Shown in pieces: positions 37,038-48,905 of a stretch of DNA of 64,000 bases. The stretch spans positions 4,038-68,037 of the forward strand of contig VGJY01000001.1 of NCBI GenBank assembly GCA_016867235.1, written 5' to 3'. Both the position numbers and the translations under genes were made by a program. Each line of letters opens with the position of its first letter. Position 1 is the first letter of the stretch. Below the pieces are notes generated by a model. That model ran no database searches and was not told the DNA's origin. It was given only the letters and a program-made list of their open reading frames with translations. The DNA comes from Candidatus Tanganyikabacteria bacterium. Lineage in GTDB: Bacteria; Cyanobacteriota; Sericytochromatia; S15B-MN24; VGJW01.

Positions 37038-37225
37038 GGGCCCGCTTCTCACACGGGCAAGCCCGCCGCAAACCCGGCGCAACGATTCGCGCGGACAAGA
37101 CCCTTGGAGCGGAAGAGGATCGAGCGGGAGCCCGGCATGCCGATGGAACTGCGGCCGGCGGGCTACCCGATGCCCGGGCGCATGGATGTGCCCGCTCCGG
37201 CACGGATGGCCATTTCCAGGTTGCG

Positions 37226-38362
37226 GTGGTGTCGACGAGCGGATTTGCGACGCATGACGCGCGCTGCGGGTTGTGCCAGTTCACCTTCGAGGCGCTTGCC
37301 CCCCGAGCGCGAGGTAGCGTGCTGCGGTGGCGCGACTCGGATCGGTGCCCGTGGTACGAGGGACCGAACCCGGTGTTCTACGCGGTCTGGGTCTGCCCAA
37401 GCTGCCACTTCGCGGCCTTCAGGGAGGAGTTCGCGAGCTCTCCCGGAAAGGCGCGGGACGCTGTCCAGGAGGCCCTTGCCGCGAGCGCCCCGTCCGCGGC
37501 GGCCGTCGCATTCGACGGCACCGAGCGCAGCCTGTTCGCGGCACTCACCAGTTACCAGCTGGCCCTGACCTGCTACGAGGCGCGCAAGGCGGCGCCGGAG
37601 GTGCTGGCGGGCTTGGCGCTTCGCGCCGCCTGGATCTGCCGCTACGCCGGCGAATTGCGGCGCGAGATAGGGTTCCTGGCCAAGGCGCGCGACCAGTATC
37701 TCGAGGCGTTCGAGCGCGGCGTGCGCCGTGACGCGCTCCTGGACGATCTGGCGATCGCGTTCCTGGTCGGCGAGCTGCAACTGCGTACGGGGCAAATCGG
37801 CGAGGCGTGGCAGTACTTTCGCGTGGTCCAGGAGGCGAAGGATACCGCGCCCGTCCTGGCGGCCCTGGCCCGCGAACGGCAGGGTGACGCCATGCGCGCG
37901 CAGCGGGTGCGGGAGTTCCTCGAAAAGGTGCCGATGTTCGTGCCGCTGGGCGAGCGGGGGCTCTCGCTCGTCTCGGTCCACGGGAGTGAGCAGACGTACC
38001 GGCCGGGCGCGGCCATCGTGAGCAAGGGTGGCGCCGGCGAGGCGATGTTCGCCATACTCTCGGGCGAAGTGCGACTGTACAATGCCGAGGAGCCCCAGGG
38101 CGAGCCGATCGTCACGCTGCGGCCCGGCGAGACCTTCGGCGAGATGGCGCTGTTCACCGGCGACGCGCACCCCGAGACCGCCGTGGCCTGGGCTCCGGCC
38201 CGGGGCGGCGACAAGGTTGTGGTGCTGGAGATCAACCGCACCGTGTTCCGCAACCTCGTAAAGGCCGTACCGGACGTGGCGTTGCGGGTGGCCGTCGCCA
38301 TGTCGCAGCGCTACGCGCGGGCCGCGCATGCCGAGGTGTTGCCGGAGCCTTCTCCGGTGTGA
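37226..38362 (+). CDS. DUF2225-like zinc-ribbon/TPR-like domain fused to a cyclic-nucleotide-binding (cNMP) domain
   Basis: CGLCQ...CPWYEGPNPVFYAVWVCPSCHFAAF then a cNMP fold (GGAGEAMFAILSGEVRLY...GETFGEMALFTG). Paralog of 60470-61738. GTG start inferred by alignment with the paralog. Confidence 0.65.
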   Translation: MVSTSGFATHDARCGLCQFTFEALAPRARGSVLRWRDSDRCPWYEGPNPVFYAVWVCPSCHFAAFREEFASSPGKARDAVQEALAASAPSAAAVAFDGTERSLFAALTSYQLALTCYEARKAAPEVLAGLALRAAWICRYAGELRREIGFLAKARDQYLEAFERGVRRDALLDDLAIAFLVGELQLRTGQIGEAWQYFRVVQEAKDTAPVLAALARERQGDAMRAQRVREFLEKVPMFVPLGERGLSLVSVHGSEQTYRPGAAIVSKGGAGEAMFAILSGEVRLYNAEEPQGEPIVTLRPGETFGEMALFTGDAHPETAVAWAPARGGDKVVVLEINRTVFRNLVKAVPDVALRVAVAMSQRYARAAHAEVLPEPSPV

Positions 38363-38381: not shown

Positions 38382-38476
38382 TGGGCACGGCTTGCCGTCC
38401 TTCACGCAGGCAGGCAGCCGCCCGCCATCGTGACGCTTTTCGTAGGTTCCCCGCGGGCGGGGATAGCGTGTTAGGA
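38382..38476. repeat. ~95-bp direct repeat, copy A (flanks the COG1373 ATPase gene; overlaps its last 6 nt)
   Basis: About 85% identical to 40011-40105 in the same orientation; contains the CCCCGCGGGCGGGG hairpin. Confidence 0.6.
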
Positions 38477-39802
38477 GCCGGACCCTGCACCTCTGGCCGC
38501 GCCGTCGAGCAGGAAGCGCCAGGCAGGAGTCACCTCGATTCGCCGGCCTTCGCTCTCGAGAACCTCCTGCTCGCTCCACGTCACCACGGTTGCCGCCTTG
38601 GCCTCCACCTCGCGCATCGCCTCCCCGAGGGCCGCCAACTCGCGCTTGCGAGTCGCCCGGTCCGCCAACGACTGGCTGACTTGGACGAGTGCGGGGACGC
38701 GACCGCGATCCGGTATCGCGAAGTCCACTTCGCGGCCCGTCCGGGTCCGGTAGTAGCGGATCTCGGAGTGCCGGCGCCGCAGCGCCATGAATACCAGGTT
38801 TTCGAGGAGGTGGCCCGAGTTGACGAGGAGCCCTGACGTCACCGACGTGACCAGGGAGTGGTCAACGCAGTAGATCTTCTTCGGGTTGGCGAGGCTCCTG
38901 GTCAGCGAGGCGTCGTGGAGACGCACGGTGAACAGGAAGTATGCATCCTCGAACCACTCCAGGTACTCGGAGACCGCGGCCTTGGGTGCCCTGTGCCCGA
39001 GAGCCTTGAGATGCCCGGTGAGACCGTTGATGGAGTAAAGCGACCCCGCGTTGTCGATCAGCCAGTAGGCCAGATCCGTCAGAGCCTTGGGGTGAGAGAT
39101 GTCGTGGCGTTCGATCAGGTCCCTGAACAGGATCGCGTTCAGGTAGTCCTGGTGGGTGGCGATCCGCAGATCGCGCCGCAGTCCGGCTACCTCGGGAAAT
39201 CCCCCCTCGGCCCAGTAGCGCTCGAAGGCGTCCTGCACCAGCAGCCTGCCGCGTGTGGAGAGGGCTTCTCCGGCCGGCACGCCCGCGAATCTCAGGTATT
39301 CCCGGAAAGAAAACGGGAACAGCTCCCAGGACAGGGCACGGCCACGCATCTGCGTGGCGACTTCCTTCGACAGGAGCTTCGCCGACGAGCCGGTCAGGTA
39401 GATCTGGCACTTCTCGGTGCGCAAGAGCCGGTCGATGAAGGGCTCCCAGCCCGGCACCATCTGGATCTCGTCGAAGAAGCAGTGGACGGTCTCGGTATCC
39501 TTCTTCGCCGGATAGAGGCCGAAGTAGGCCTCGACGATCGCGCCGAGGTCGTCGTGCCGCATACCGTGAAGGCGGTCGTCGAAGAAGTTGAGGTACAGGA
39601 TGTTCTCGCGAGGCACATCGCGGGCGAGCAAGCCATGCATGACCTGGGACAGGTAGGTCGACTTGCCGCACCGGCGAACGCCCACCAGGACGGTGGCCTT
39701 GCCCGGGACAGGTGCCACCTGCAACTCCCTCGGAACGCCCGGCTCCAGACGACCATCCTGAGAATCCAGGATGAGCGCCTTGAGCATCTCGACGAGGGAC
39801 AT
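38471..39802 (-). CDS. AAA+ ATPase of the COG1373 family (AAA_14 + DUF4143)
   Basis: Walker A VGVRRCGKST; conserved COG1373 architecture; 443 aa. Confidence 0.8.
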   Translation of the reverse strand: MSLVEMLKALILDSQDGRLEPGVPRELQVAPVPGKATVLVGVRRCGKSTYLSQVMHGLLARDVPRENILYLNFFDDRLHGMRHDDLGAIVEAYFGLYPAKKDTETVHCFFDEIQMVPGWEPFIDRLLRTEKCQIYLTGSSAKLLSKEVATQMRGRALSWELFPFSFREYLRFAGVPAGEALSTRGRLLVQDAFERYWAEGGFPEVAGLRRDLRIATHQDYLNAILFRDLIERHDISHPKALTDLAYWLIDNAGSLYSINGLTGHLKALGHRAPKAAVSEYLEWFEDAYFLFTVRLHDASLTRSLANPKKIYCVDHSLVTSVTSGLLVNSGHLLENLVFMALRRRHSEIRYYRTRTGREVDFAIPDRGRVPALVQVSQSLADRATRKRELAALGEAMREVEAKAATVVTWSEQEVLESEGRRIEVTPAWRFLLDGAARGAGSGS

Positions 39803-39817
39803 CGTCTTGTCTCCTGA

Positions 39818-39833
39818 GATCGGTAAAGAACTT
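39818..39833. promoter_or_regulatory. Perfect 16-bp palindrome GGTAAAGAACTTTACC between the putative promoter and the RBS of the COG1373 ATPase gene (candidate operator)
   Basis: Direct reading; located 16-31 nt upstream of the ATG (39802), minus strand. Confidence 0.35.
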
Positions 39834-39955
39834 TACCACTTTTTGCAGAAACCGGCAACAAGAGTTTCCGATCGGGCAGGCGAGGCGGTCCAACGGGCTC
39901 TGCTTCATGCCGGCGCCGAGCAGCATGGCCTCGGTGCCGGCGTCGCGCCGATCGG

Positions 39956-39998
39956 TGTCGAGACGGTCGGCGTCGAGACGGTCGGCGTCGCGGCCGGC
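39956..39998. repeat. Short tandem repeat (~2.7 x 15 bp, gtcgagacggtcggc)
   Basis: Direct reading. Confidence 0.4.
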
Positions 39999-40010: not shown

Positions 40011-40105
40011 TGGGCACGGTCGGCCGTCCTTCACGCAGGCAGGCGACCGCCTGGCATCGTGACGTTTTTCGTAGATTCCCCGCCGGCGGGGCTGGCGTGT
40101 AAAGA
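40011..40105. repeat. ~95-bp direct repeat, copy B
   Basis: Matches 38382-38476. Confidence 0.6.
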
Positions 40106-40221
40106 TTGATGTGAATTCACCGCCGGTGTTGAGAATCTCTCTCAACAAGCCCCTCGAATGTGTCGTAGTGTCACTTTCGAGGTTAACTTAACCTTTCGGG
40201 TCGTGATGGGCCTGGACCGAC

Positions 40222-40473
40222 CTATCGGGCGCCATCTCGGGGGGCGACCCAGAATGGCGGTGTCCTTCCTGTGCGAGAGACAAGCACGCGTCCGACCCCG
40301 CCGCGTAACGCGGTCTTGATGCGCTTCGCCATCGGCTCGCGCTGCGGGGTCCTCCAGCGGTCGGTGAAAACGCACGGCAGAACCTGCTCGAAGCCCAGGT
40401 CCCGTCGCGCCTGCTCGACCTTGTGGTAGGTCGAGCAGGCGCGACGTCCACGACGACGAGCCATGTCCCGAAG
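40222..40473 (-). pseudogene. Possible gene remnant encoding a basic 83-aa peptide (MARRRGRRACSTYHKVEQARRDLGFEQ...)
   Basis: ORF with atypically low GC3 and rare CGT codons for this genome, inside a degenerate segment between repeats; no confident homology. Confidence 0.2.
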
Positions 40474-40609
40474 CTCACCATCGGATGCGTAGCGCCTGGA
40501 GCGGGGGACCACCTTGGAGCCAGTCTCGCAGGCGGACGGCGTGGTGATCCAGGTGGGCCGCAAGGGGGCGTTCCTCGCCTCCCCACGGCGTGGGCCTCTG
40601 CAGCGCCTC

Positions 40610-40786
40610 GGTCCGCCCGGGGAAGGGGTCGCCAAGCACTTGCTTGATGGCGCCTCATAGCGGCGCTCAAATGACCTGGCGCCTATCGGACGCAGGCACG
40701 GAGGCCTGCGCCACCGATGCAACGGGTGGGGCCGGCCTCCGTGCCGGCCGCGATGCCGGAGCGAAGTCATCAGAGCCGCGCTATCA
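40610..40786. repeat. Interspersed ~170-bp hairpin-containing element, copy 2 (inverted relative to copy 1)
   Basis: Reverse complement aligns to 10677-10850; begins at the TGA stop of the 66-aa ORF (40784-40786). Confidence 0.5.
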
Positions 40787-40984
40787 GTAGAGCGATCCCG
40801 CCCGGCCTGCGGCCGCGAAGATCTTCCGCCGGGCGGCGGCGATGTCCTTGGCGTCGATGTAGTCCAGGGAGTCGGCGCCTTTCCTGATCTCCTCGGCGAC
40901 GTCACGGAGTGTGGACCCGACGGGCGTCTTGAGCCGTCCCTGGTACTTCGCCAGGTACCTGAGCATCCGGTCCTGGTTGCGCAT
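40784..40984 (-). CDS. Hypothetical small protein (66 aa)
   Basis: ORF with protein-like composition immediately downstream of the second COG1373 ATPase; no family assignment. Confidence 0.4.
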   Translation of the reverse strand: MRNQDRMLRYLAKYQGRLKTPVGSTLRDVAEEIRKGADSLDYIDAKDIAAARRKIFAAAGRAGSLY

Positions 40985-41131
40985 CTTGGCACCGATGAGA
41001 TCCCGGGAAACCGGGATGGAAAGAGGACCCTGTCTACCGACCCCAGCGAGGTCGCAATGACGGGCACCCCTTCACTCATTGACCCTTGCTTGGTTATCTT
41101 TTCCCCGGCCAAGGCGCGACAAAGCAGATCC

Positions 41132-42400
41132 TCATGGCCCCAGGGCCCCGACCGGAATGACGAGCACTCCGTCGTCGCGCCGGTACGTGTATCCCGTGGC
41201 GGTGAGGACTCCGAGACAGGCGGGCTTGCGAACGGTTCGCCCGGCCAACCTGAGCAGGGCCGTCGCGGCGGCGTCGATGTCGGCTGCGCCGAGCTTCACC
41301 TCGAAGGCGGCCCAGGCGCCGTCTTCCCTTTCGATCACCGCGTCGCATTCGAGATCTCCCTTTTCCTCGCGATAGTGCAGCACGGAGGCACGGGCGGCCT
41401 GGGCGAAGACCCTGAGATCCCGCACCACCAGCGACTCGAACAGGAAGCCAAAAGTACGCAGATCCCCGAGGAGGCCGGCCGCGTCGCGATGCAAGAGGGC
41501 GGCCGCAAGGGCGGGATCGGCCAGGTGCCGCTTGGGCGCGGCGGTCAGACGCGAGCGCGATCTCAGTTCCGGCTGCCAGGCTGGCTGGTCTTCCACGACC
41601 ATGAGCCGTGCAAGTGCATCGAGATACTCCGTTCCTGTCCATCTCGAAGGGCCGCCGCCAGCGCCGCCGCCAGCATCCTCGCCCGCCGCCCGCTGGACGA
41701 TCGTGGCGAGCCTGGCGGGGTGAGCGACGACCTGCGCGAAGGCGTGCAAGAAGCGCCGGACGCGCACCGGATCGCGACGAACGCCGTCGACGGTGTGGAT
41801 GTCGATGTCGACGATCGTATCGACGTAACCGCGATTGAACCGTACGGCTGCTTGCTCGTCTGCCATGAGGAGAGCGGGCCAGCCCCCTGTTGCGACTTCG
41901 CTGGCATAGTCCCTCACGGTCAATTCTGATCGCGCCGGCTCCGGTCCCTCTCCGTCGAGCAGCCGGGAAATGGAGGCTGCGCCCGAAGACTTCCCGCGTT
42001 CGAACAGCGTCATGGGGCGCATCTGCACTATCGAGAACCTTCCAGCTCCGCCATGGCGCCGGATGTCGGCCGGACGCCGTGCCGAACCCGTCAACAGGAA
42101 CTGTCCCGCCAGGCCTCGATCGTCCACGGCGCGCCGGACCGCGTTCCAGATCTCCGGAACGATTTGCCACTCATCCAGCAAGCGCGGCGTCGGGCCGTCA
42201 AGGACCAACCGGGGATCCACTCTCGCAGCCAGCGCCGCCTGGGGGTCCAGGTCGAGCAAGACCTCGCTTCCGGCATGTTGGCGAGCGGACTCGGTCTTGC
42301 CGCAGGCCTTCGGCCCCTCGATCGCGACCGCTCCAAGGGCACTCATGGCGTCGCTGACCTCGCGGTCCACGACGCGGGGTCGGTAGGTTCTTCTGGTCAT
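41132..42400 (-). CDS. AAA+ ATPase of the COG1373 family (second copy)
   Basis: Walker A IEGPKACGKTE; DUF4143-type C-terminus; 422 aa. Confidence 0.8.
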   Translation of the reverse strand: MTRRTYRPRVVDREVSDAMSALGAVAIEGPKACGKTESARQHAGSEVLLDLDPQAALAARVDPRLVLDGPTPRLLDEWQIVPEIWNAVRRAVDDRGLAGQFLLTGSARRPADIRRHGGAGRFSIVQMRPMTLFERGKSSGAASISRLLDGEGPEPARSELTVRDYASEVATGGWPALLMADEQAAVRFNRGYVDTIVDIDIHTVDGVRRDPVRVRRFLHAFAQVVAHPARLATIVQRAAGEDAGGGAGGGPSRWTGTEYLDALARLMVVEDQPAWQPELRSRSRLTAAPKRHLADPALAAALLHRDAAGLLGDLRTFGFLFESLVVRDLRVFAQAARASVLHYREEKGDLECDAVIEREDGAWAAFEVKLGAADIDAAATALLRLAGRTVRKPACLGVLTATGYTYRRDDGVLVIPVGALGP

Positions 42401-42426
42401 TACCGACAGTTCTCGAGACGAGAGTC

Positions 42427-42518
42427 CACAGTATCCGAAGATCCAAGTCTACAGTTACCGACCGATTCAGTCTACGGTTTCCGAGCGAACCGGTCAACAA
42501 CTTCCGAGGATGCCAATC
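42427..42518. repeat. Four tandem 23-bp direct repeats (consensus tACAGTTtCCGAnnnannnaGTC) in the divergent region between the COG1373 ATPase and the alpha-2-macroglobulin gene
   Basis: Motif starts at 42428, 42451, 42474 and 42497 with exact 23-bp spacing. Confidence 0.5.
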
Positions 42519-42686
42519 GGGCTCGCCTAGCCACCGCCGTCTGTCGAGGTCGGAGCGGGGCCTGGCATCCAGGGGATTCGACGCTGCATCCGACAGTCTG
42601 AAACTTTGCTCGCAAGCAATCCGGTCTAAGATGCATTAGCCAGCCAGGTCGGGTTGGTTGGCCTTGAGAGACAGGCGGGACTCGAA

Positions 42687-45600
42687 ATGTCGCATGCATC
42701 CCGGAATGCTCGGCGCGCGCGTTTTCTGGCAATCGGCGCCGCGATCGCCGCGGTCGGCCTGGCGGCCGGCCTCGCCCTCTGGAGTCCCCACGGGACGGCG
42801 GCTCCCACCCCCGGCAAATCGCCCGAAGTGCACCTCAAGCTCGACGATCGCTGGAAGCTGGTAGACAAGCTCATCGAGGAGCAGAAGTTCGAGGCGGCGG
42901 CCAAGGAGGTCCGGGGCATCCTGACCGCGGCCAAGGCGACCGGGGACCAGGCGCAGTGGACCCGCGCGCTGATCCGCGAGGTGCAGTTGCGCATGGGGTT
43001 GCACGGCTACGAGACCGCCGTCCGTTTCCTCAAGGAAGAGCCGTGGCCCGAGGCGCCGTTGCACCGGACGACGCTGAACCTGTTCTACGGCCACGCGCTC
43101 GTGCAGTACGCGCAGGCCTATGCATGGGAAATCGGCAAGCGCGAACGCGTCGCCGCCGCGGGGCCGGTGGACCTCAAGAAGTGGACCCGGGAACAGATAC
43201 ACGACGCGGCGGCGGCGGCATACGCCCACGCGTGGCGGGATCGGGTCGCGCTGGGGCGCGAGCCTGTGGGGCGGCTGGCCGAATACCTCTCGCCAAACGA
43301 CTATCCGGCCGGCATCCGCGGGACCTTGCGCGATGCGGTCACCTACCTGTTCGTCGAGTTGCTGGCGAACTCGGGCGGGTGGACGCCCGAGCAGGCAAAC
43401 GACCTGTTCAGGCTGCCGCTCGCCGACCTCATCGCCGGCGACCCGGGCAAGTCGGCGGCAATCGACCCCGCCAACCCCGCGGTGCATCCGCTCCTGCGCG
43501 TCGGGGCGCTCCTCGACGATCTCGAGAGCTGGCACCGCGAGCGGCGGAGCGCCGAAGGTGCCCTGGAGGCGCGGCTCGAGCGCTTGCGCCGGCTGCACGC
43601 CGCTTTCGATCTGCCCGCCGACCGCGAGCGGATCACCGGGCACCTGCGCCAACGCCTGCCGGCGTTCCGGGGCGTGCCGTGGTGGAGCATGGGCATGGCG
43701 ACGCTCGCCGAGTTCGTGCAGGCCGAACCGGTCGCCGATAACCTGGTGCGGGCCAGGCAGATCGCGATCGAGGGCCAGCGAGCCTACCCCGATTCGGTCG
43801 GCGGGCAGCGCGCCAACCACATCGCCCGGCGCATCGAGGCGCCCGACTTCCAGGTGACGGCCATGGCGGCCGACGGGCCCGGTCGGCGGAGTGTGCTGGT
43901 CAGCCACCGCAATCTGCCCGAGTTGCACTTCCGGGCGTATCCGGTCGATTTCGAGGCGCGCCTGGCCAGGACCGTGGAGAGCGGCCTCCTGCCGAGCTAC
44001 CGCGATCTCGAGCAGATCGTCCGGGGGCAGAAGCCCGCGCACGCCTGGCGGGTGAAGCTCCCCGCGACGCCCGACTTCAAGGACCATCGCACCTTCGTCA
44101 CGCCGCCCATGGCCAGCCCGGGCGTGTATGTGGTGGCCGCCTCGGCGCGCGCGGATTTCGGCTCCGGGGACAACCGGGTGATGGCGGTCAACGTCAACGT
44201 CACGGACCTGGTCATGCTGTCCCGGGAAGACGGTGAGGGCGGTTTGGCGGTCACCGTGCTGTCGGGCCGGACGGGCAAGCCGGTCGCCGGGGCGACCGTG
44301 TCCCTGTACCGCTACTCCTGGCGCAAGCCGCCAGAGCGCATGCGCCGCGACCGCACCGGTGAGGACGGCGAGGCGGCCTTCCCGTGGCAGTCGCGGGAAG
44401 ATGTCGGCGAGTCGAAGTTCCTGGTGGGGCGGCTGGGAGAGCACCTGGCGCTCGACCAGAGCTATTTCTCGCTCTACAAGCCTTCGGCTCCCACCGAGTC
44501 GGATGCCGCGCTGATCTACACGGATCGGAGCATCTACCGGCCCGAGCAGGAAGTGCGCTTCAAGATCGTGGCGTTCCGCGGCCGCGGCGACCAGGCCCGG
44601 TACCGCACGCTGCCGGGCCGCGACCTGCGGGTGTCGCTCTACGACGCCAACGGCCAGGAGGTGGACGGGAAGAAGGTCCGTACCAATCGCTACGGCACGG
44701 CTTCCGGCATTTTCCGCGTACCGGCCGGCCGCGCGCTCGGCCAGTGGCATGTCGCCACGTCGGTCGGCGGCTCGCAGTACGTGCGCGTCGAGGAGTACAA
44801 GCGGCCGACTTTCGAGGTCAAGCTCGAGGATCCCGAGGCCGCGTTGCGGCTCAACAAGCCGGCGACGGTGGCGGGCACGGCGCGCTACTACTTCGGCCTG
44901 CCGGTCACTGCCGGGAGCGTGCGCTGGCGCGTCACGCGCGAACCGGTGTATCCCTGGTGGTGGGACTGGGACTGGTGGGGAGCGGGCCAGGGGCGGTCCG
45001 GGGCGCAGGCCATCGCCGGGGGCACGGCGACGCTGGGCGCGGACGGCAAGTTCAAGTTCACCTTCACGCCCGAGGCGGACGAGCGCGCGGCCAAGGGCCT
45101 GTCATACCGGTACGCGGTGGCGGCCGACGTGACCGACGAGGGCGGCGAGACGCGATCCGCCGACCGGGCCTTCCGGCTCGGCACGGTGGCGATCGAGGCC
45201 GCATTTCGCACCGACGCGGCCTTCTTCCGGCCCGACGCCACCGGCGCGATCGTCGTCACCCGCACCGATCTGGACGGCGTTCCGCGGGCGGGAAAGGGCT
45301 CCTGGCGCCTGATCGCCCTGCGGCAGCCCGCCGCGGCGACATTGCCCGCCGACATGTCCCGCACGGCCGGTCCCGCGGCCGACGGGTCCGAGCAGGCGGG
45401 CGACACCGAGGAGGCGGACGGCGAGGCCGATCCGGACGAGCCGGGCGAGACCTCGGCCGGACCGGGTGCGCCGCTGACCAAGGGCGACCGGTTGCGAGCG
45501 CGCTGGGAGACGGGCTACGGCGCCGAGGCCGCGTTGCGGCGCTGGGCGGATGAAAAGCAGCTTTCCCGGGGCGACCTGGCGCACGGCGCCGACGGCGAGG

Positions 45601-48600
45601 CCCGGGTGGCGATCGAGGGCCTGGCGCCCGGCGCCTACCGCCTCCGCTACCGCACCGAAGATCCGTACGGCGCGACCTTCGAGGCGGCCAGGGAATTCGT
45701 GGTCGCGGGCGCGCCGATGGCCCTGCCGGCCGTGCTCATGGCCGAGCATTCCGCCGTGCCCGTCGGCGGCACGGCGCGGATCCTGGTGGCTTCGGGGCTC
45801 CCGGACCAGGTCCTGCTCTTCGATCTCTACAAGGCGGGCAAGCTCGTGCGCCGGCAGCGGCTGGCTTCCGGCCGCGAACGGCACGTCGTCGAGATCCCCG
45901 TGGGCGAGGGGGACCGCGGCGGCTTCGGCGTGAAGCTGACGGTCCTGCGCGATCACCAGCTCATGACCTTGACGCAGGCGGTCTTCGTCCCGTGGGACGA
46001 TAAGCAGCTCCAGGTGTCGTTCTCGACTTTCCGCGACAAGCTCCGGCCGGGCGGGCGCGAGACATGGAAGGTTACGGTCAAGGGGCCGAAGGGCGCGCCG
46101 GTGGAAGCCGGCGGGGCCGAACTGCTGGCCTACATGTACGACCGCAGCCTCGACCTCTTCGCACCCCACGCGCCCGCCGACCCCCTGGCCCTTTACCCCA
46201 ACCGCACGGGCGTTTCATGGGCGCGGGCCAGCCTGGGGAGCGTGTCGCCGCAGTGGCTCTGGAGCGATTTCGCCGGGTTGCCCTACTACCCGTCGCTCTC
46301 GGGCGATCGGCTGATCTTCTTCGACAGCTACGGCATCGGCGGCCCGGGGTACCGCCACGGCGGCTACCGGCTGCGATCGGCCATGCCGATGGCGCCGGCC
46401 CCGGCCGGCGCGCCCGCGATGGAGGCGGCCGACCGCATGGAGCAGGCGCCGGCCCGGAAGGCGGAGAGCCGCAGCGACCGGAACGGGGAGGACGAGCGCA
46501 AGTCGACCGAGGGCGACAAGACCAAGGGGTTTGGCGTGGCGTCCGGGCGCGGCCAGGCCGAGGGTCCGCAACCGGCGCCGCTGCGGAGCAACTTCGCCGA
46601 GACGGCTTTCTTCCAGCCCCACCTCGAGGTGGACGAGGACGGCGCCGTCGGCTTCGAGTTCGAGGTGCCCGATTCGGTCACCGCCTGGAACGTGTGGGTC
46701 CACGCGATCACCGCCGACCTGAAGGGCGGCGCGGTGCGCAAGGAGGCCCGGAGCGTCAAGGACCTGATGGTGCGGCCGTACATGCCGCGCTTCCTGCGCG
46801 AGGGGGACAAGGCCGAGTTGCAAGTGGTGGTCAACAACGCCACCGACAAGCCGCTGACCGGCCAGGTGACGCTGGACATCGTCGATCCCGACTCGGGCGC
46901 CAGCATCCTGGGCGAGTTCGGTCTGGCGGGAGCGAAGCCGCTCGCATTCAAAGCCGCCGCCAAGGGATCGGGCAAGGTCTCCTTCCCGATCGCCGCCCCG
47001 AAGCGAGTACGGCCGGCGGCATTCAAGGTGGTGGCCCGGGCGGGCGACGATTCGGACGGCGAACTGCGGCCCCTGCCGGTGCTCCCGGGCCGGATGCATC
47101 TGGCCCAGTCCCGGTTCGTGACGCTGCGCGACGTCGAGAAGCGGGACATGGTCTTCGCGGACATGGCCGCGGCCGGCGCGGATCCGAGCCTGGTGCACGA
47201 CTCGCTCGTCGTCACCGTGGATGCGCAACTCTTCTACCAGGTGCTCGAAGCGTTGCCGTACCTCATCGAGTACCCGTACGAGTGCACCGAGCAGACCATG
47301 AATCGCTTCGTCTCGACGGGCATCGTGTCCTCGGTCTTCGAGCAGTTCCCGGCGATCGGGAAGATGGCGGCCGAGTTCGCGAAACGCGAGACGCAGTACG
47401 CCTCTTGGGCCGACGACGACCCCAACCGCAAGCTGACGCTCGAGGAGTCGCCATGGCTGCGCATCGCCAGGGGCGGCAGCGGCCAGGACAAGGGCCTGGC
47501 GAAGATCCTCGATCCGCGCATCGCGCGGGCCACCCGCGACACCTCTCTGGCCAAGCTCCGGCAGGCGCAACTGCCGTCGGGCGCCTTCCCCTGGTGGGCC
47601 GGCGGCCCGCCGTCGCCCTACATCACGCTCTACCTGATGCACGGCTTCGCCAAGGCGGTCGAGTTCCAGGTGGACGTGCCCAAGGACGTGGTACAGCGCG
47701 GCTGGAACTACCTGGCCGACGAGGTCCGCAGGGACATGCAATGGGCCTTCGCGCACGACTGCTGCTGGGAGTTCTTGACCTTCGTGAACTACGTGGCGAG
47801 CTCGTATCCCGACCAGTCCTGGACCGGCGATGCGCTCACCGCCAAGGAGCGCAAGCAGATACTCGACTTCAGCTTCCGGCACTGGAAGCGCCACTCGCCC
47901 TACCTCAAGGGCTACCTCGCCCTCACGCTCAAGCGCATGGGCAGGCCAGCGGACGCGAAACTGGTCTGGGACGGCGTGATGGATTCCGCGAAGACCACCC
48001 GCGACGAAGGCACCTCGTGGGCGCCCGAGGATCGCGCGTGGCTCTGGTACAACGACACGATCGAGACCCACGCGTACGCCCTGCGGACGCTCATGGAACT
48101 CGAGCCGCGAGACGCCCGGCGCGACGGCATCGTCCAGTGGTTGCTGCTCAACAAGAAGCTCAACCACTGGAAGAGCACCCGCGCGACGGCCGAGGTCATC
48201 TATTCGCTGGTCCACTATCTCAAGGCCGAGAAGCAACTGGGCATCCCGGAGCACCTGGCGGTGCAGGTCGGCCCGCGCTCGCAGGAGTTCCGCTTCGATC
48301 CCGAGAAGTACACGGGCAAGAAGAACCAGGTCGTGGTGCCGGGCGCAGAGGTCGACCCGAAGACCATGCACAAGGTCGTCGTCTCGAAGACGACGAAGGG
48401 CTTCGCCTTCGCCTCGGCGACCTGGCACTATTCCACCGAGAAGCTCCCGGCGGCCGACCGGGGTGATCTGCTCGGCGTCAACCGGAGCTACTTCCGGCGC
48501 GAGCACACGTCCGGAGGGTGGGTGCTGCGGCCATTGCAGGAGGGAACCAAGGTAGCCGTGGGCGACCAGGTGGAAGTGCACCTGTCCATCCGGGCCCGGC

Positions 48601-48905
48601 ATCCGGCCGAGTACGTCCACCTGCGCGATCCGCGGCCGGCGGGCTTCGAGCCAGACTCGCAGCTCTCGAAGTGGAAGTGGGATCTGGGGTTGGCCTGGTA
48701 CGAAGAGATCCGCGACAGCGGGACCAACTTCTTCTTCGAGGCCCTGCCCCAGGGCGAGTACACGCTCAAGTACCGCCTGCGCGCCGCCATGCCCGGCACC
48801 TTCCGGGTCAGCCCGGCAACGCTCCAGTCGATGTACGCCCCCGAGTTCAACGCCTTCTCGGCGGGAACCATCGTCGGCGTCGCCGGGTCGGGAGATCAGC
48901 AATAG
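42687..48905 (+). CDS. Bacterial alpha-2-macroglobulin family protein (~2070 aa) with thioester motif
   Basis: Thioester site EYPYECTEQTM; MG/A2M domain organisation; N-terminal signal/anchor MSHASRNARRARFLAIGAAIAAVGLAAGLALW. Confidence 0.85.
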   Translation: MSHASRNARRARFLAIGAAIAAVGLAAGLALWSPHGTAAPTPGKSPEVHLKLDDRWKLVDKLIEEQKFEAAAKEVRGILTAAKATGDQAQWTRALIREVQLRMGLHGYETAVRFLKEEPWPEAPLHRTTLNLFYGHALVQYAQAYAWEIGKRERVAAAGPVDLKKWTREQIHDAAAAAYAHAWRDRVALGREPVGRLAEYLSPNDYPAGIRGTLRDAVTYLFVELLANSGGWTPEQANDLFRLPLADLIAGDPGKSAAIDPANPAVHPLLRVGALLDDLESWHRERRSAEGALEARLERLRRLHAAFDLPADRERITGHLRQRLPAFRGVPWWSMGMATLAEFVQAEPVADNLVRARQIAIEGQRAYPDSVGGQRANHIARRIEAPDFQVTAMAADGPGRRSVLVSHRNLPELHFRAYPVDFEARLARTVESGLLPSYRDLEQIVRGQKPAHAWRVKLPATPDFKDHRTFVTPPMASPGVYVVAASARADFGSGDNRVMAVNVNVTDLVMLSREDGEGGLAVTVLSGRTGKPVAGATVSLYRYSWRKPPERMRRDRTGEDGEAAFPWQSREDVGESKFLVGRLGEHLALDQSYFSLYKPSAPTESDAALIYTDRSIYRPEQEVRFKIVAFRGRGDQARYRTLPGRDLRVSLYDANGQEVDGKKVRTNRYGTASGIFRVPAGRALGQWHVATSVGGSQYVRVEEYKRPTFEVKLEDPEAALRLNKPATVAGTARYYFGLPVTAGSVRWRVTREPVYPWWWDWDWWGAGQGRSGAQAIAGGTATLGADGKFKFTFTPEADERAAKGLSYRYAVAADVTDEGGETRSADRAFRLGTVAIEAAFRTDAAFFRPDATGAIVVTRTDLDGVPRAGKGSWRLIALRQPAAATLPADMSRTAGPAADGSEQAGDTEEADGEADPDEPGETSAGPGAPLTKGDRLRARWETGYGAEAALRRWADEKQLSRGDLAHGADGEARVAIEGLAPGAYRLRYRTEDPYGATFEAAREFVVAGAPMALPAVLMAEHSAVPVGGTARILVASGLPDQVLLFDLYKAGKLVRRQRLASGRERHVVEIPVGEGDRGGFGVKLTVLRDHQLMTLTQAVFVPWDDKQLQVSFSTFRDKLRPGGRETWKVTVKGPKGAPVEAGGAELLAYMYDRSLDLFAPHAPADPLALYPNRTGVSWARASLGSVSPQWLWSDFAGLPYYPSLSGDRLIFFDSYGIGGPGYRHGGYRLRSAMPMAPAPAGAPAMEAADRMEQAPARKAESRSDRNGEDERKSTEGDKTKGFGVASGRGQAEGPQPAPLRSNFAETAFFQPHLEVDEDGAVGFEFEVPDSVTAWNVWVHAITADLKGGAVRKEARSVKDLMVRPYMPRFLREGDKAELQVVVNNATDKPLTGQVTLDIVDPDSGASILGEFGLAGAKPLAFKAAAKGSGKVSFPIAAPKRVRPAAFKVVARAGDDSDGELRPLPVLPGRMHLAQSRFVTLRDVEKRDMVFADMAAAGADPSLVHDSLVVTVDAQLFYQVLEALPYLIEYPYECTEQTMNRFVSTGIVSSVFEQFPAIGKMAAEFAKRETQYASWADDDPNRKLTLEESPWLRIARGGSGQDKGLAKILDPRIARATRDTSLAKLRQAQLPSGAFPWWAGGPPSPYITLYLMHGFAKAVEFQVDVPKDVVQRGWNYLADEVRRDMQWAFAHDCCWEFLTFVNYVASSYPDQSWTGDALTAKERKQILDFSFRHWKRHSPYLKGYLALTLKRMGRPADAKLVWDGVMDSAKTTRDEGTSWAPEDRAWLWYNDTIETHAYALRTLMELEPRDARRDGIVQWLLLNKKLNHWKSTRATAEVIYSLVHYLKAEKQLGIPEHLAVQVGPRSQEFRFDPEKYTGKKNQVVVPGAEVDPKTMHKVVVSKTTKGFAFASATWHYSTEKLPAADRGDLLGVNRSYFRREHTSGGWVLRPLQEGTKVAVGDQVEVHLSIRARHPAEYVHLRDPRPAGFEPDSQLSKWKWDLGLAWYEEIRDSGTNFFFEALPQGEYTLKYRLRAAMPGTFRVSPATLQSMYAPEFNAFSAGTIVGVAGSGDQQ

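Follow-up and report, generated by a model that had tools for sequence, protein, structure and literature searches.

The region upstream of a PDC-S01 ATPase-nuclease gene in a 64,000-nucleotide (nt) stretch of contig VGJY01000001.1 of Candidatus Tanganyikabacteria bacterium (here called the window) contains an array of five head-to-tail units of about 23 bp. The array occupies positions 42402 to 42513 and reads on the minus strand, as does the gene that it precedes (ATPase #2, 41132 to 42400, 422 amino acids). Arrays of exactly the same period were found just upstream of homologues of this gene in more than 10 phyla, with unit sequences that differ among lineages and vary together with the sequence of the adjacent protein. 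The array is of the iteron-like or operator-array type, attached to an abundant uncharacterized gene family. From the sequence comparisons described below, we lean towards the reading that it serves the ATPase-nuclease of the same module as a platform of head-to-tail docking sites, with autoregulation as its primary role; binding of the ATPase to the array, its binding as an oligomer, and the direction of the regulation are the three elements of this reading that we infer.

PDC-S01, an ATPase fused to a PD-(D/E)XK domain, is a single-gene candidate defence system that is reported to be enriched in archaea (PMC12988326). Among the candidate defence systems of prokaryotes it is reported to rank fourth in frequency, at about 39,000 instances, but it is without validation or a known mechanism (PMC12988326). 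In the literature that we searched, which included few papers from subscription journals, neither upstream repeats nor sequence-specific DNA binding is mentioned for PDC-S01. We met no earlier description there of a PDC-S01-linked repeat array, although an absence from literature so covered is not proof.

The preliminary description of this region had placed four 23-bp repeats at 42428, 42451, 42474, and 42497, and both direct reading of the sequence and a motif search confirmed them. On the plus strand the cores ACAGTATCCGA (42428), ACAGTTACCGA (42451), ACGGTTTCCGA (42474), and ACAACTTCCGA (42497) carry 1 to 2 mismatches to ACAGTTTCCGA and are spaced exactly 23 bp apart. A fifth, degenerate core, ACAGTTCTCGA, was found at 42406, offset by 22 bp and at a distance of 6 nt from the minus-strand start codon (ATG, 42400). 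The conserved core, GTCyACrGTwwCCGA, is about 15 to 17 nt long, which is longer than previously given, and is followed by a variable linker of about 6 nt. Read on the gene strand, where the unit core is TCGGwwACyGTrGAC, the array begins next to the gene with the degenerate unit 0 (42402 to 42416, ACCGACAGTTCTCGA on the plus strand), which has 2 mismatches to the 11-nt core, is offset from unit 1 by 22 bp, and stops 2 nt short of the ATPase #2 start codon. Core alignment and motif search placed the cores of the other minus-strand units, given here by their plus-strand sequences, at 42424 to 42438 (unit 1, GTCCACAGTATCCGA), 42447 to 42461 (unit 2, GTCTACAGTTACCGA), 42470 to 42484 (unit 3, GTCTACGGTTTCCGA), and 42493 to 42507 (unit 4, the most diverged, GTCAACAACTTCCGA).

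The periodicity of this array is exceptional within the window. The lag-23 self-match per 69 nt peaks at 45/69 at position 42416, the maximum of the 64-kb window (mean, 18.5; standard deviation, 3.9), a value reached nowhere else, and three pairs of motif sites exactly 23 bp apart were found in the window, compared with none in 300 shuffles. The motif itself is not enriched elsewhere in the 64-kb window (with 2 mismatches allowed, 12 matches versus 9.6 expected), and the array accounts for 5 of these 12 matches. Tandem Repeats Finder detected just 2.7 copies (42423 to 42484, 77% matches), indicating that the array in the window is old and that its copies are fairly diverged.

Close homologues of ATPase #2 (L001 to L005, 65 to 72% identity) are found in unrelated contexts and have 3 to 5 units of TCGGAAAYGGTAGRYT, which is the window unit read on the gene strand, with a 23-bp period and reaching the start codon. 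Four close homologues were fetched with their flanks; their neighbours include ABC transporters, PIN/RES toxins, and methylmalonyl-CoA mutase, and the array was present in all four. With a profile built on 22 homologues, 80 loci were retrieved from named genomes of Actinomycetota, Gemmatimonadota, Acidobacteriota, Bacteroidota, Spirochaetia, Elusimicrobia, Chloroflexota, Gammaproteobacteria, Latescibacterota, Nitrospirales, Lentisphaerae, and cyanobacteria. A regular expression for the core of the window array matched next to nothing among homologues at 43 to 57% identity and was therefore replaced by a sequence-independent lag scan of the 150 nt upstream of each gene, with in-gene and downstream DNA as controls, which exposed a conserved period with divergent sequence. 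Of 79 genome loci, which represent more than 10 phyla, about 73 were most self-similar at a lag of 23. Scores of at least 30/46 were reached in 52 of the 79 loci, always at lag 23, and in none of the in-gene or downstream controls. The same lag was best in 23/25 relatives on viral or prophage contigs (35 to 42% identity) and in all three plasmids of cultured isolates, each with a clear 23-bp array: pCaero1 of Collinsella aerofaciens ATCC 25986 (L195, NZ_CP048434.1), a plasmid of Bacteroides ovatus 3725 D1 iv (L196, NZ_CP041396.1), and pPAES01 of Prosthecochloris aestuarii DSM 271 (L197, NC_011061.1). The unit of P. aestuarii DSM 271, GGCGAAAYGGTAGCGTA, is similar to that of the window, and no repeat feature is annotated in any of the three plasmid records. 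The great majority of loci are chromosomal, the gene being present on only 9 of 72,556 plasmid records.

Across homologues with 28 to 72% identity, nearly all bear 2 to 10 direct repeats of exactly 23 bp just upstream, and the sequence of the unit is wholly different among lineages (for example, CCGCTATACTCTCTGCATTCTCC, AAAAGTTCGACAAATCACCGGTT, TGCACAATAAAATATCTTAATAA, and TTCATATTTTCCCGGTTATAATC). A conservative caller gave array sizes of 2 to 7 units. At a Vicinamibacterales locus (L067, about 2709 to 2936), at least 10 perfect 23-bp copies were found, and copy number can therefore expand. Paralogues within one genome have different units (L053 versus L041 and L029 versus L036). At L069, a second array (2072 to 2117) lies about 215 nt downstream of the gene, at the contig end, an arrangement suggestive of modules in tandem, as with the pair of adjacent ATPase genes in the window. 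The ATPase is the sole gene conserved beside the array across loci.

Mismatches between adjacent copies, placed in a common register, are concentrated in the linker, with 40% at linker positions 3 to 8 compared with 14% elsewhere (chi-square p = 3e-19), which indicates selection on a core of about 16 nt rather than neutral slippage. Unit cores are restricted to the upstream array in 29 of 34 loci. Within 3 kb on either side, cores outside the array were found on the reverse strand in 2/34 loci and on the forward strand in 3/34, and these exceptions are array extensions, for the most part, or a second array. In 53 loci, the similarity of units followed the identity of the proteins (Mantel r = 0.377; permutation maximum, 0.203). 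When whole-protein identity was controlled for, the 20-residue windows with the highest partial correlations were 241 to 260 (0.21), 236 to 255 (0.17), and 246 to 265 (0.16), compared with a maximum over all windows of 0.178 in 200 label permutations. Many lineages share a register, with consensus TGnAnnTnCGCCAAATCACCCGC, in which loci with H or Q at protein position 254 have TG at unit positions 18 to 19 in five of five cases, from two protein clusters, while D, E, or S at this position is accompanied by TG in 0/21 (Fisher p = 1.5e-5, with kinship ignored). Alignment position 254 corresponds to W254 of the window protein, which we propose, from the sequence data, as the specificity position. 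The ATPase is the likely binder, since no other neighbour is conserved and the repeat covaries with its sequence, and the PDC-S01 protein is, on this comparative evidence, very probably a sequence-specific DNA-binding protein. A shared host factor does not fit with the different units of paralogues in one genome.

ATPase #2 consists of AAA_14 and DUF4143 domains (Pfam) and was assigned to PDC-S01 by the PADLOC hidden Markov model (HMM) PDLC04790 (E = 9.5e-66, residues 5 to 420). It has the architecture of PDC-S01, an AAA_14 P-loop ATPase fused to a DUF4143 / PD-(D/E)XK domain with catalytic residues intact, including Walker A at G29 to T36, Walker B at D76-E77, and a nuclease core of D353 and E367-x-K369. 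Among homologues, D353 is invariant and E367 and K369 are nearly so. A protein from a 'Candidatus Sericytochromatia' metagenome-assembled genome (MAG) matches ATPase #2 at 100%, and its nearest relatives, at 55 to 72% identity, are chiefly from MAGs of Actinomycetota; we found no NCBIfam family for it and no relatives in PDB by sequence. An AlphaFold2 (AF2) model (mean predicted local distance difference test [pLDDT] score, 67; mostly above 85 in the C-terminal half) has the order AAA+ domain, lid, helix-helix-helix-hairpin segment (211 to 293), and PD-(D/E)XK core. Residues from about 205 to 295 may thus form a winged-helix-like segment, and position 254 would stand at the start of its third helix, where a recognition helix would enter the major groove.

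The only sigma-70-like site within 42300 to 42750 is on the strand of the ATPase and inside the array (one site versus 0.0 expected in shuffles). This predicted promoter (42469 to 42497, minus strand) was recognized by its match to the consensus and consists of a -35 hexamer, TTGACC (42497 to 42492), a 17-nt spacer, and a -10 hexamer, TAGACT (42474 to 42469), the two hexamers filling equivalent positions of units 4 and 3 (6 + 17 = 23). It would consequently leave units 2, 1, and 0 between the transcription start and the ATG, a repressive geometry. Overlap of promoter and array was also seen in other lineages by consensus matching: a strict sigma-70 match was found in 10 of 53 arrays, and in 8 of these 10 the -35 hexamer is inside the last 1 to 3 units. 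In two AT-rich relatives (L174, with TTGCAA-17-TATAAT, and L167, with TGGTATAAT), the promoter starts at the last unit.

In the mechanism that we propose, the array is the cis half of a two-part module, of which the other half is the PDC-S01 ATPase-nuclease gene. Each unit, comprising a core of about 16 nt and a linker of about 6 to 7 nt, would be the docking site for one copy of the protein encoded by the adjacent gene, and the reading of the sites would fall to the residues around 254, where the third helix of the winged-helix-like segment begins. The combination of head-to-tail sites, an invariant period, and a sequence that drifts with the protein indicates that the spacing is most likely set by protein-protein contacts within an ATPase-driven oligomer, in which each protomer would correspond to 23 bp (about 2.2 helical turns). 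As the array abuts or overlaps its own promoter, autoregulation would most likely be the primary role. In the clade of the window, this would probably be repression of a potentially toxic nuclease, with the units lying between the predicted promoter and the ATG.

Several observations weigh against this mechanism. The strict promoter matches make the placement of promoter and array readable for few loci, and the gap between array and start codon ranges from about 0 to 115 nt, so that the regulatory geometry may not be uniform. The covariation statistics ignore phylogeny, and the link between H or Q and TG represents at least two, perhaps three, independent clades. The winged-helix assignment comes from the topology of a model that is partly of low confidence (pLDDT below 50 at 240 to 255), and because Foldseek gave only weak matches, with nothing in PDB at E <= 0.001, we use the winged-helix label tentatively. 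Furthermore, 3 to 10 sites exceed the need of simple autorepression, and the sharp boundary of transferred DNA around array and gene hints at a role for the array beyond regulation.

This boundary was found by cross-phylum blastn, in which more than 20 locus pairs have 72 to 89% nucleotide identity from the distal edge of the array to 1 to 16 nt past the stop codon. The pairs include L051 with L070, L065, and L067, L056 with L068, L075 with L076, and L042 with L049, and L073 and L074 are also involved; by taxon, they join Pseudomonadales with Latescibacterota and Vicinamibacterales, Prochlorococcaceae with Sulfopaludibacter, and Chitinophaga with Lutibacter. Related genomes that share one flank only, with the breakpoint at the edge of the module, were found in Latescibacterota (L065, L070, and L074) and in the comparison of L022 with L059. 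Judged by these alignments, array and gene clearly form one travelling cassette of about 1.4 kb. In the main rival to docking and autoregulation, which we consider unlikely, the array would be a cis site acting outside of, or in addition to, transcription, either as a nucleation or parking platform where an oligomer is loaded or held inactive or as a recombination or mobility site of the cassette. The confinement of cross-phylum homology to array and gene, the single shared flanks, the dynamic copy number exemplified by L067, the intact nuclease motif, and the number of sites beyond the need of a simple operator are all in favour of such a site. However, neither a target-site duplication nor a common flanking motif or recombinase was found at the module junctions, no recombinase or transposase is associated with the module, and no inverted or additional set of units lies beyond the gene at its other end. 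Within a genome, paralogues have diverged and give no sign of recent bursts of transposition, and the shuffling of cassettes in defence islands can also yield sharp boundaries. For the broader proposition that PDC-S01 is a protein-plus-DNA module in which the array is essential beyond promoter control, as a filament platform or as a site of cassette mobility, our estimate is a shade lower still. In the platform variant, an ATPase-nuclease filament with 23 bp per protomer may be held inactive on the array or loaded onto DNA from it.

Returning to the promoter, the period could instead derive from the geometry of RNA polymerase, if the array were a series of tandem promoters in which each hexamer could serve two neighbouring promoters, the first as its -10 and the second as its -35 (6 + 17 = 23). 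The positions of TTGACC and TAGACT in adjacent units of the window agree with this arrangement, as do L077, where TTTACA-17-TATATT joins the first hexamer of the last unit to the slot of the next, and the units of the window clade, which hold TAGACT, TAGGAT, or TAGATT and thereby fit TANNNT. We nevertheless regard tandem promoters as very unlikely, because the units of most lineages lack promoter-like hexamers (for example, CGCCGAATCACCCGC and CTCTGCAATCTCCCCGC), strict matches are confined to the 10 arrays mentioned above, the covariation of units with residues 241 to 260 would be left unexplained, and paralogues in the same genome share one polymerase yet differ in their units.

Action at the RNA level, through a repetitive 5' leader or small RNAs processed from it, would draw on the same predicted promoter, which would put units 2, 1, and 0 into a leader of about 62 nt. 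A known structured RNA was rejected, with no Rfam matches at E <= 1 and a predicted fold z of -1.47 (16 of 200 shuffles fold as well). At many loci the promoter appears to be at or after the last unit, so that the array would be untranscribed, and direct repeats whose linker varies give no hint of a conserved RNA structure; an RNA function is accordingly given little more than a nominal probability.

The array had previously been described as a feature of the alpha-2-macroglobulin (A2M) gene (42687 to 48905, plus strand; Pfam bMG10, A2M, and MG2), on the supposition of phased, cooperative binding sites for a transcription factor, such as a response regulator, with no obvious regulator gene nearby. 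Control of A2M by such a separate host factor is consistent with the position of the array in a divergent intergenic region, about 170 bp from the A2M start. However, the array is nearer the ATPase start (2 to 113 nt) than the A2M start (174 to 285 nt), and none of about 190 array-bearing loci elsewhere has A2M nearby. Since the array accompanies ATPase homologues through unrelated contexts from which A2M is absent, it belongs to the ATPase subfamily and is unconnected to A2M, and we find a separate A2M regulator, which would also have to account for the differing units of same-genome paralogues, scarcely credible. The supposition of phased sites is retained in its iteron-like form, given the fixed period, the division into core and linker, and the covariation, and judged unlikely in its response-regulator form. 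Sites of the OmpR/PhoB type were rejected on three grounds: no regulator gene is conserved nearby, the arrays of paralogues differ, and the motif is not enriched in the window. Rather than lacking a regulator nearby, the array probably has one in the adjacent ATPase-nuclease. A lack of conservation in related genomes had been named in advance as the sign of a repeat without function; the architecture is conserved, though in orthologues of the ATPase and not of A2M. Perfect multicopy arrays such as that of L067 show that copy number is altered by slippage or unequal exchange, but we attach practically no weight to a chance or replication-slippage product without function, as the period and position persist down to about 29 to 35% protein identity in more than 10 phyla, mismatches avoid the core, and the controls are devoid of such periodicity.

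A second gene of the AAA_14-DUF4143 type, ATPase #1 (38471 to 39802, minus strand, by Pfam), lies 1.3 kb from ATPase #2 and was assigned to PDC-S01 by a different PADLOC HMM (PDLC04787, E = 9.8e-106). BLASTP gave no significant similarity between the two proteins, which have in common only their Pfam and PADLOC families. The subfamily of ATPase #1 was represented by 80 metagenome loci (L086 to L165), which are 65 to 70% identical across many phyla, and a near-consensus TTGAC[AT]-N16-18-TANNNT promoter was found in 34 of 77. Sites of CCGG type (TCCGGAAAT, AACCGGCTA, CCCGGATAA, and AACCGGAAA) are located at -13, +19, +35, +51, and +67 from the -35 hexamer, in a strict 16-bp register in which the -35 fills one slot, and are interleaved with a TTGACA-17-TATATT promoter. 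A diverged version is present in the window at 39803 to 39880 (TCGGAAAC, CCGGTTTC, GGTAAAG, and TTACCGA). By sequence, this layout appears analogous to the design of the 23-bp array at another period, and we count it in favour of docking and autoregulation.

The sites of the two subfamilies overlap in sequence at two places. The first site upstream of ATPase #1 (39861 to 39871; TCGGAAACTCT on the gene strand) has the 9-mer TCGGAAACT in common with units of ATPase #2 at 42406 to 42507, and in L004, of the ATPase #2 clade, the unit core at 114 to 192 is identical to the ATPase #1-family site TCCGGAAAT. This sharing could reflect an ancestral half-site, cross-talk, or coincidence.

Other repeats were observed around ATPase #1. 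A 95-nt direct repeat with 85% identity (38382 to 38476 and 40011 to 40105) brackets the gene, with one copy overlapping its stop codon and the second placed upstream, at about 210 nt from its start. Only these two copies are present in the window, none was found in 78 ATPase #1-type metagenome loci, and Rfam gave no match for the copy at 40011 to 40105; the repeat may be the trace of an ATPase #1 cassette that was inserted or duplicated. Between the promoter region of ATPase #1 and the upstream copy is a 15-bp tandem repeat, CGGCGTCGAGACGGT (39938 to 39990; 3.5 copies, 86% matches). The apparently noncoding stretch between the two ATPases, 40106 to 41131, contains a perfect 19-nt inverted repeat with a 6-nt loop (40403 to 40421 and 40428 to 40446) and a 66-amino-acid open reading frame (ORF) (40784 to 40984, minus strand) with a subthreshold match to DUF934. 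No other recognizable gene remnant was found in this stretch: tblastn detected no ATPase remnant in the form of a degraded third copy, and Pfam searches of its small ORFs gave nothing convincing. In 17 of 78 ATPase #1-type loci, a GC-rich element of about 105 nt with hairpin potential (GCGCCGTGTGGCGGGGAAAGCCCGCCCCTGGGG...; L099, 1296 to 1400) is located upstream, at 100 to 205 nt from the gene and on the gene strand in every case; it bears no relation to the 95-nt repeat of the window. Just upstream of the ATPase #1 cassette, a plus-strand gene (37160 to 38362) encodes a protein with DUF2225 and a cyclic-nucleotide-binding domain.

A large subfamily of PDC-S01 is thus nearly always accompanied by a coevolving 23-bp array, and a second subfamily by an array in a 16-bp register. 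For the annotation of the window, a spurious regulatory link to the A2M gene is removed. For experimental work on this candidate defence system, an ORF cloned alone or under a foreign promoter may miss its biology, while the predicted specificity residue, 254, and the predicted cognate sites offer a mechanistic handle that can be taken up in cultured carriers (C. aerofaciens ATCC 25986, B. ovatus 3725, and P. aestuarii DSM 271). Matched pairs of protein and site with fixed geometry could also supply orthogonal DNA-binding parts. Should the platform or mobility reading be true, the array would represent either a new organizing principle, for a candidate immune gene of great abundance, or a minimal mobile element of a new type.

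Among known systems, a CRISPR array, with repeats of 23 to 47 bp and unique spacers of similar length, was rejected, because the whole period here is 23 bp, comprising a core of about 16 nt and a linker of about 6 to 7 nt. In Tn7, the PD-(D/E)XK protein TnsA acts with the AAA+ protein TnsC, and the ends of Tn7 and Mu contain multiple transposase sites of about 22 bp. The array resembles such ends in having several tandem sites of about 22 to 23 bp at the edge of a horizontally moving unit. It was not accepted as a transposon end of this type, as no inverted second set of sites, DDE transposase, target-site duplication, or conserved neighbour gene was found.

Archaeal Orc1/Cdc6 proteins have a similar make-up of AAA+ domain, lid, and winged helix and bind repeated elements beside their own gene. 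However, they have no nuclease domain, the fold match is negligible (2qby, probability 0.06), and their origin recognition box (ORB) elements are typically inverted around an unwinding element rather than arranged head to tail at a fixed period. MalT and other LAL STAND regulators offer a functional likeness, an ATP-dependent protein on arrays of boxes. In contrast to the PDC-S01 protein, MalT has a LuxR-type helix-turn-helix and no nuclease and targets other operons, whereas the only known target here is the protein's own gene, and MalT boxes are shorter and without a fixed 23-bp period.

The closest likeness in layout is to the iterons of plasmids such as pSC101, P1, F, R6K, and RK2, which are cognate-specific head-to-tail repeats upstream of the Rep gene whose binding feeds back on the promoter. 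Both have direct repeats of about 17 to 22 bp with a period of about 22 to 23 bp immediately upstream of the gene for the binder (here presumed), and in each case the sequence of the repeat goes specifically with the cognate protein; feedback on the own promoter is, in the present case, a proposal. The adjacent protein differs, being an AAA_14 and DUF4143 ATPase-nuclease and not a WH1-WH2 Rep initiator, and the context in the window is of chromosomal type, with housekeeping-like genes and no features of a plasmid origin. GC content is 0.60 to 0.64 across 42150 to 42900, with no AT-rich dip, and neither an AT-rich unwinding element nor DnaA boxes are evident beside the window array, where GC is about 60 to 62%. 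The resemblance to iterons implies no function in replication. Finally, PADLOC defines PDC-S01 as a single protein-coding gene, whereas the unit described here comprises that gene and the repeat array upstream of it.

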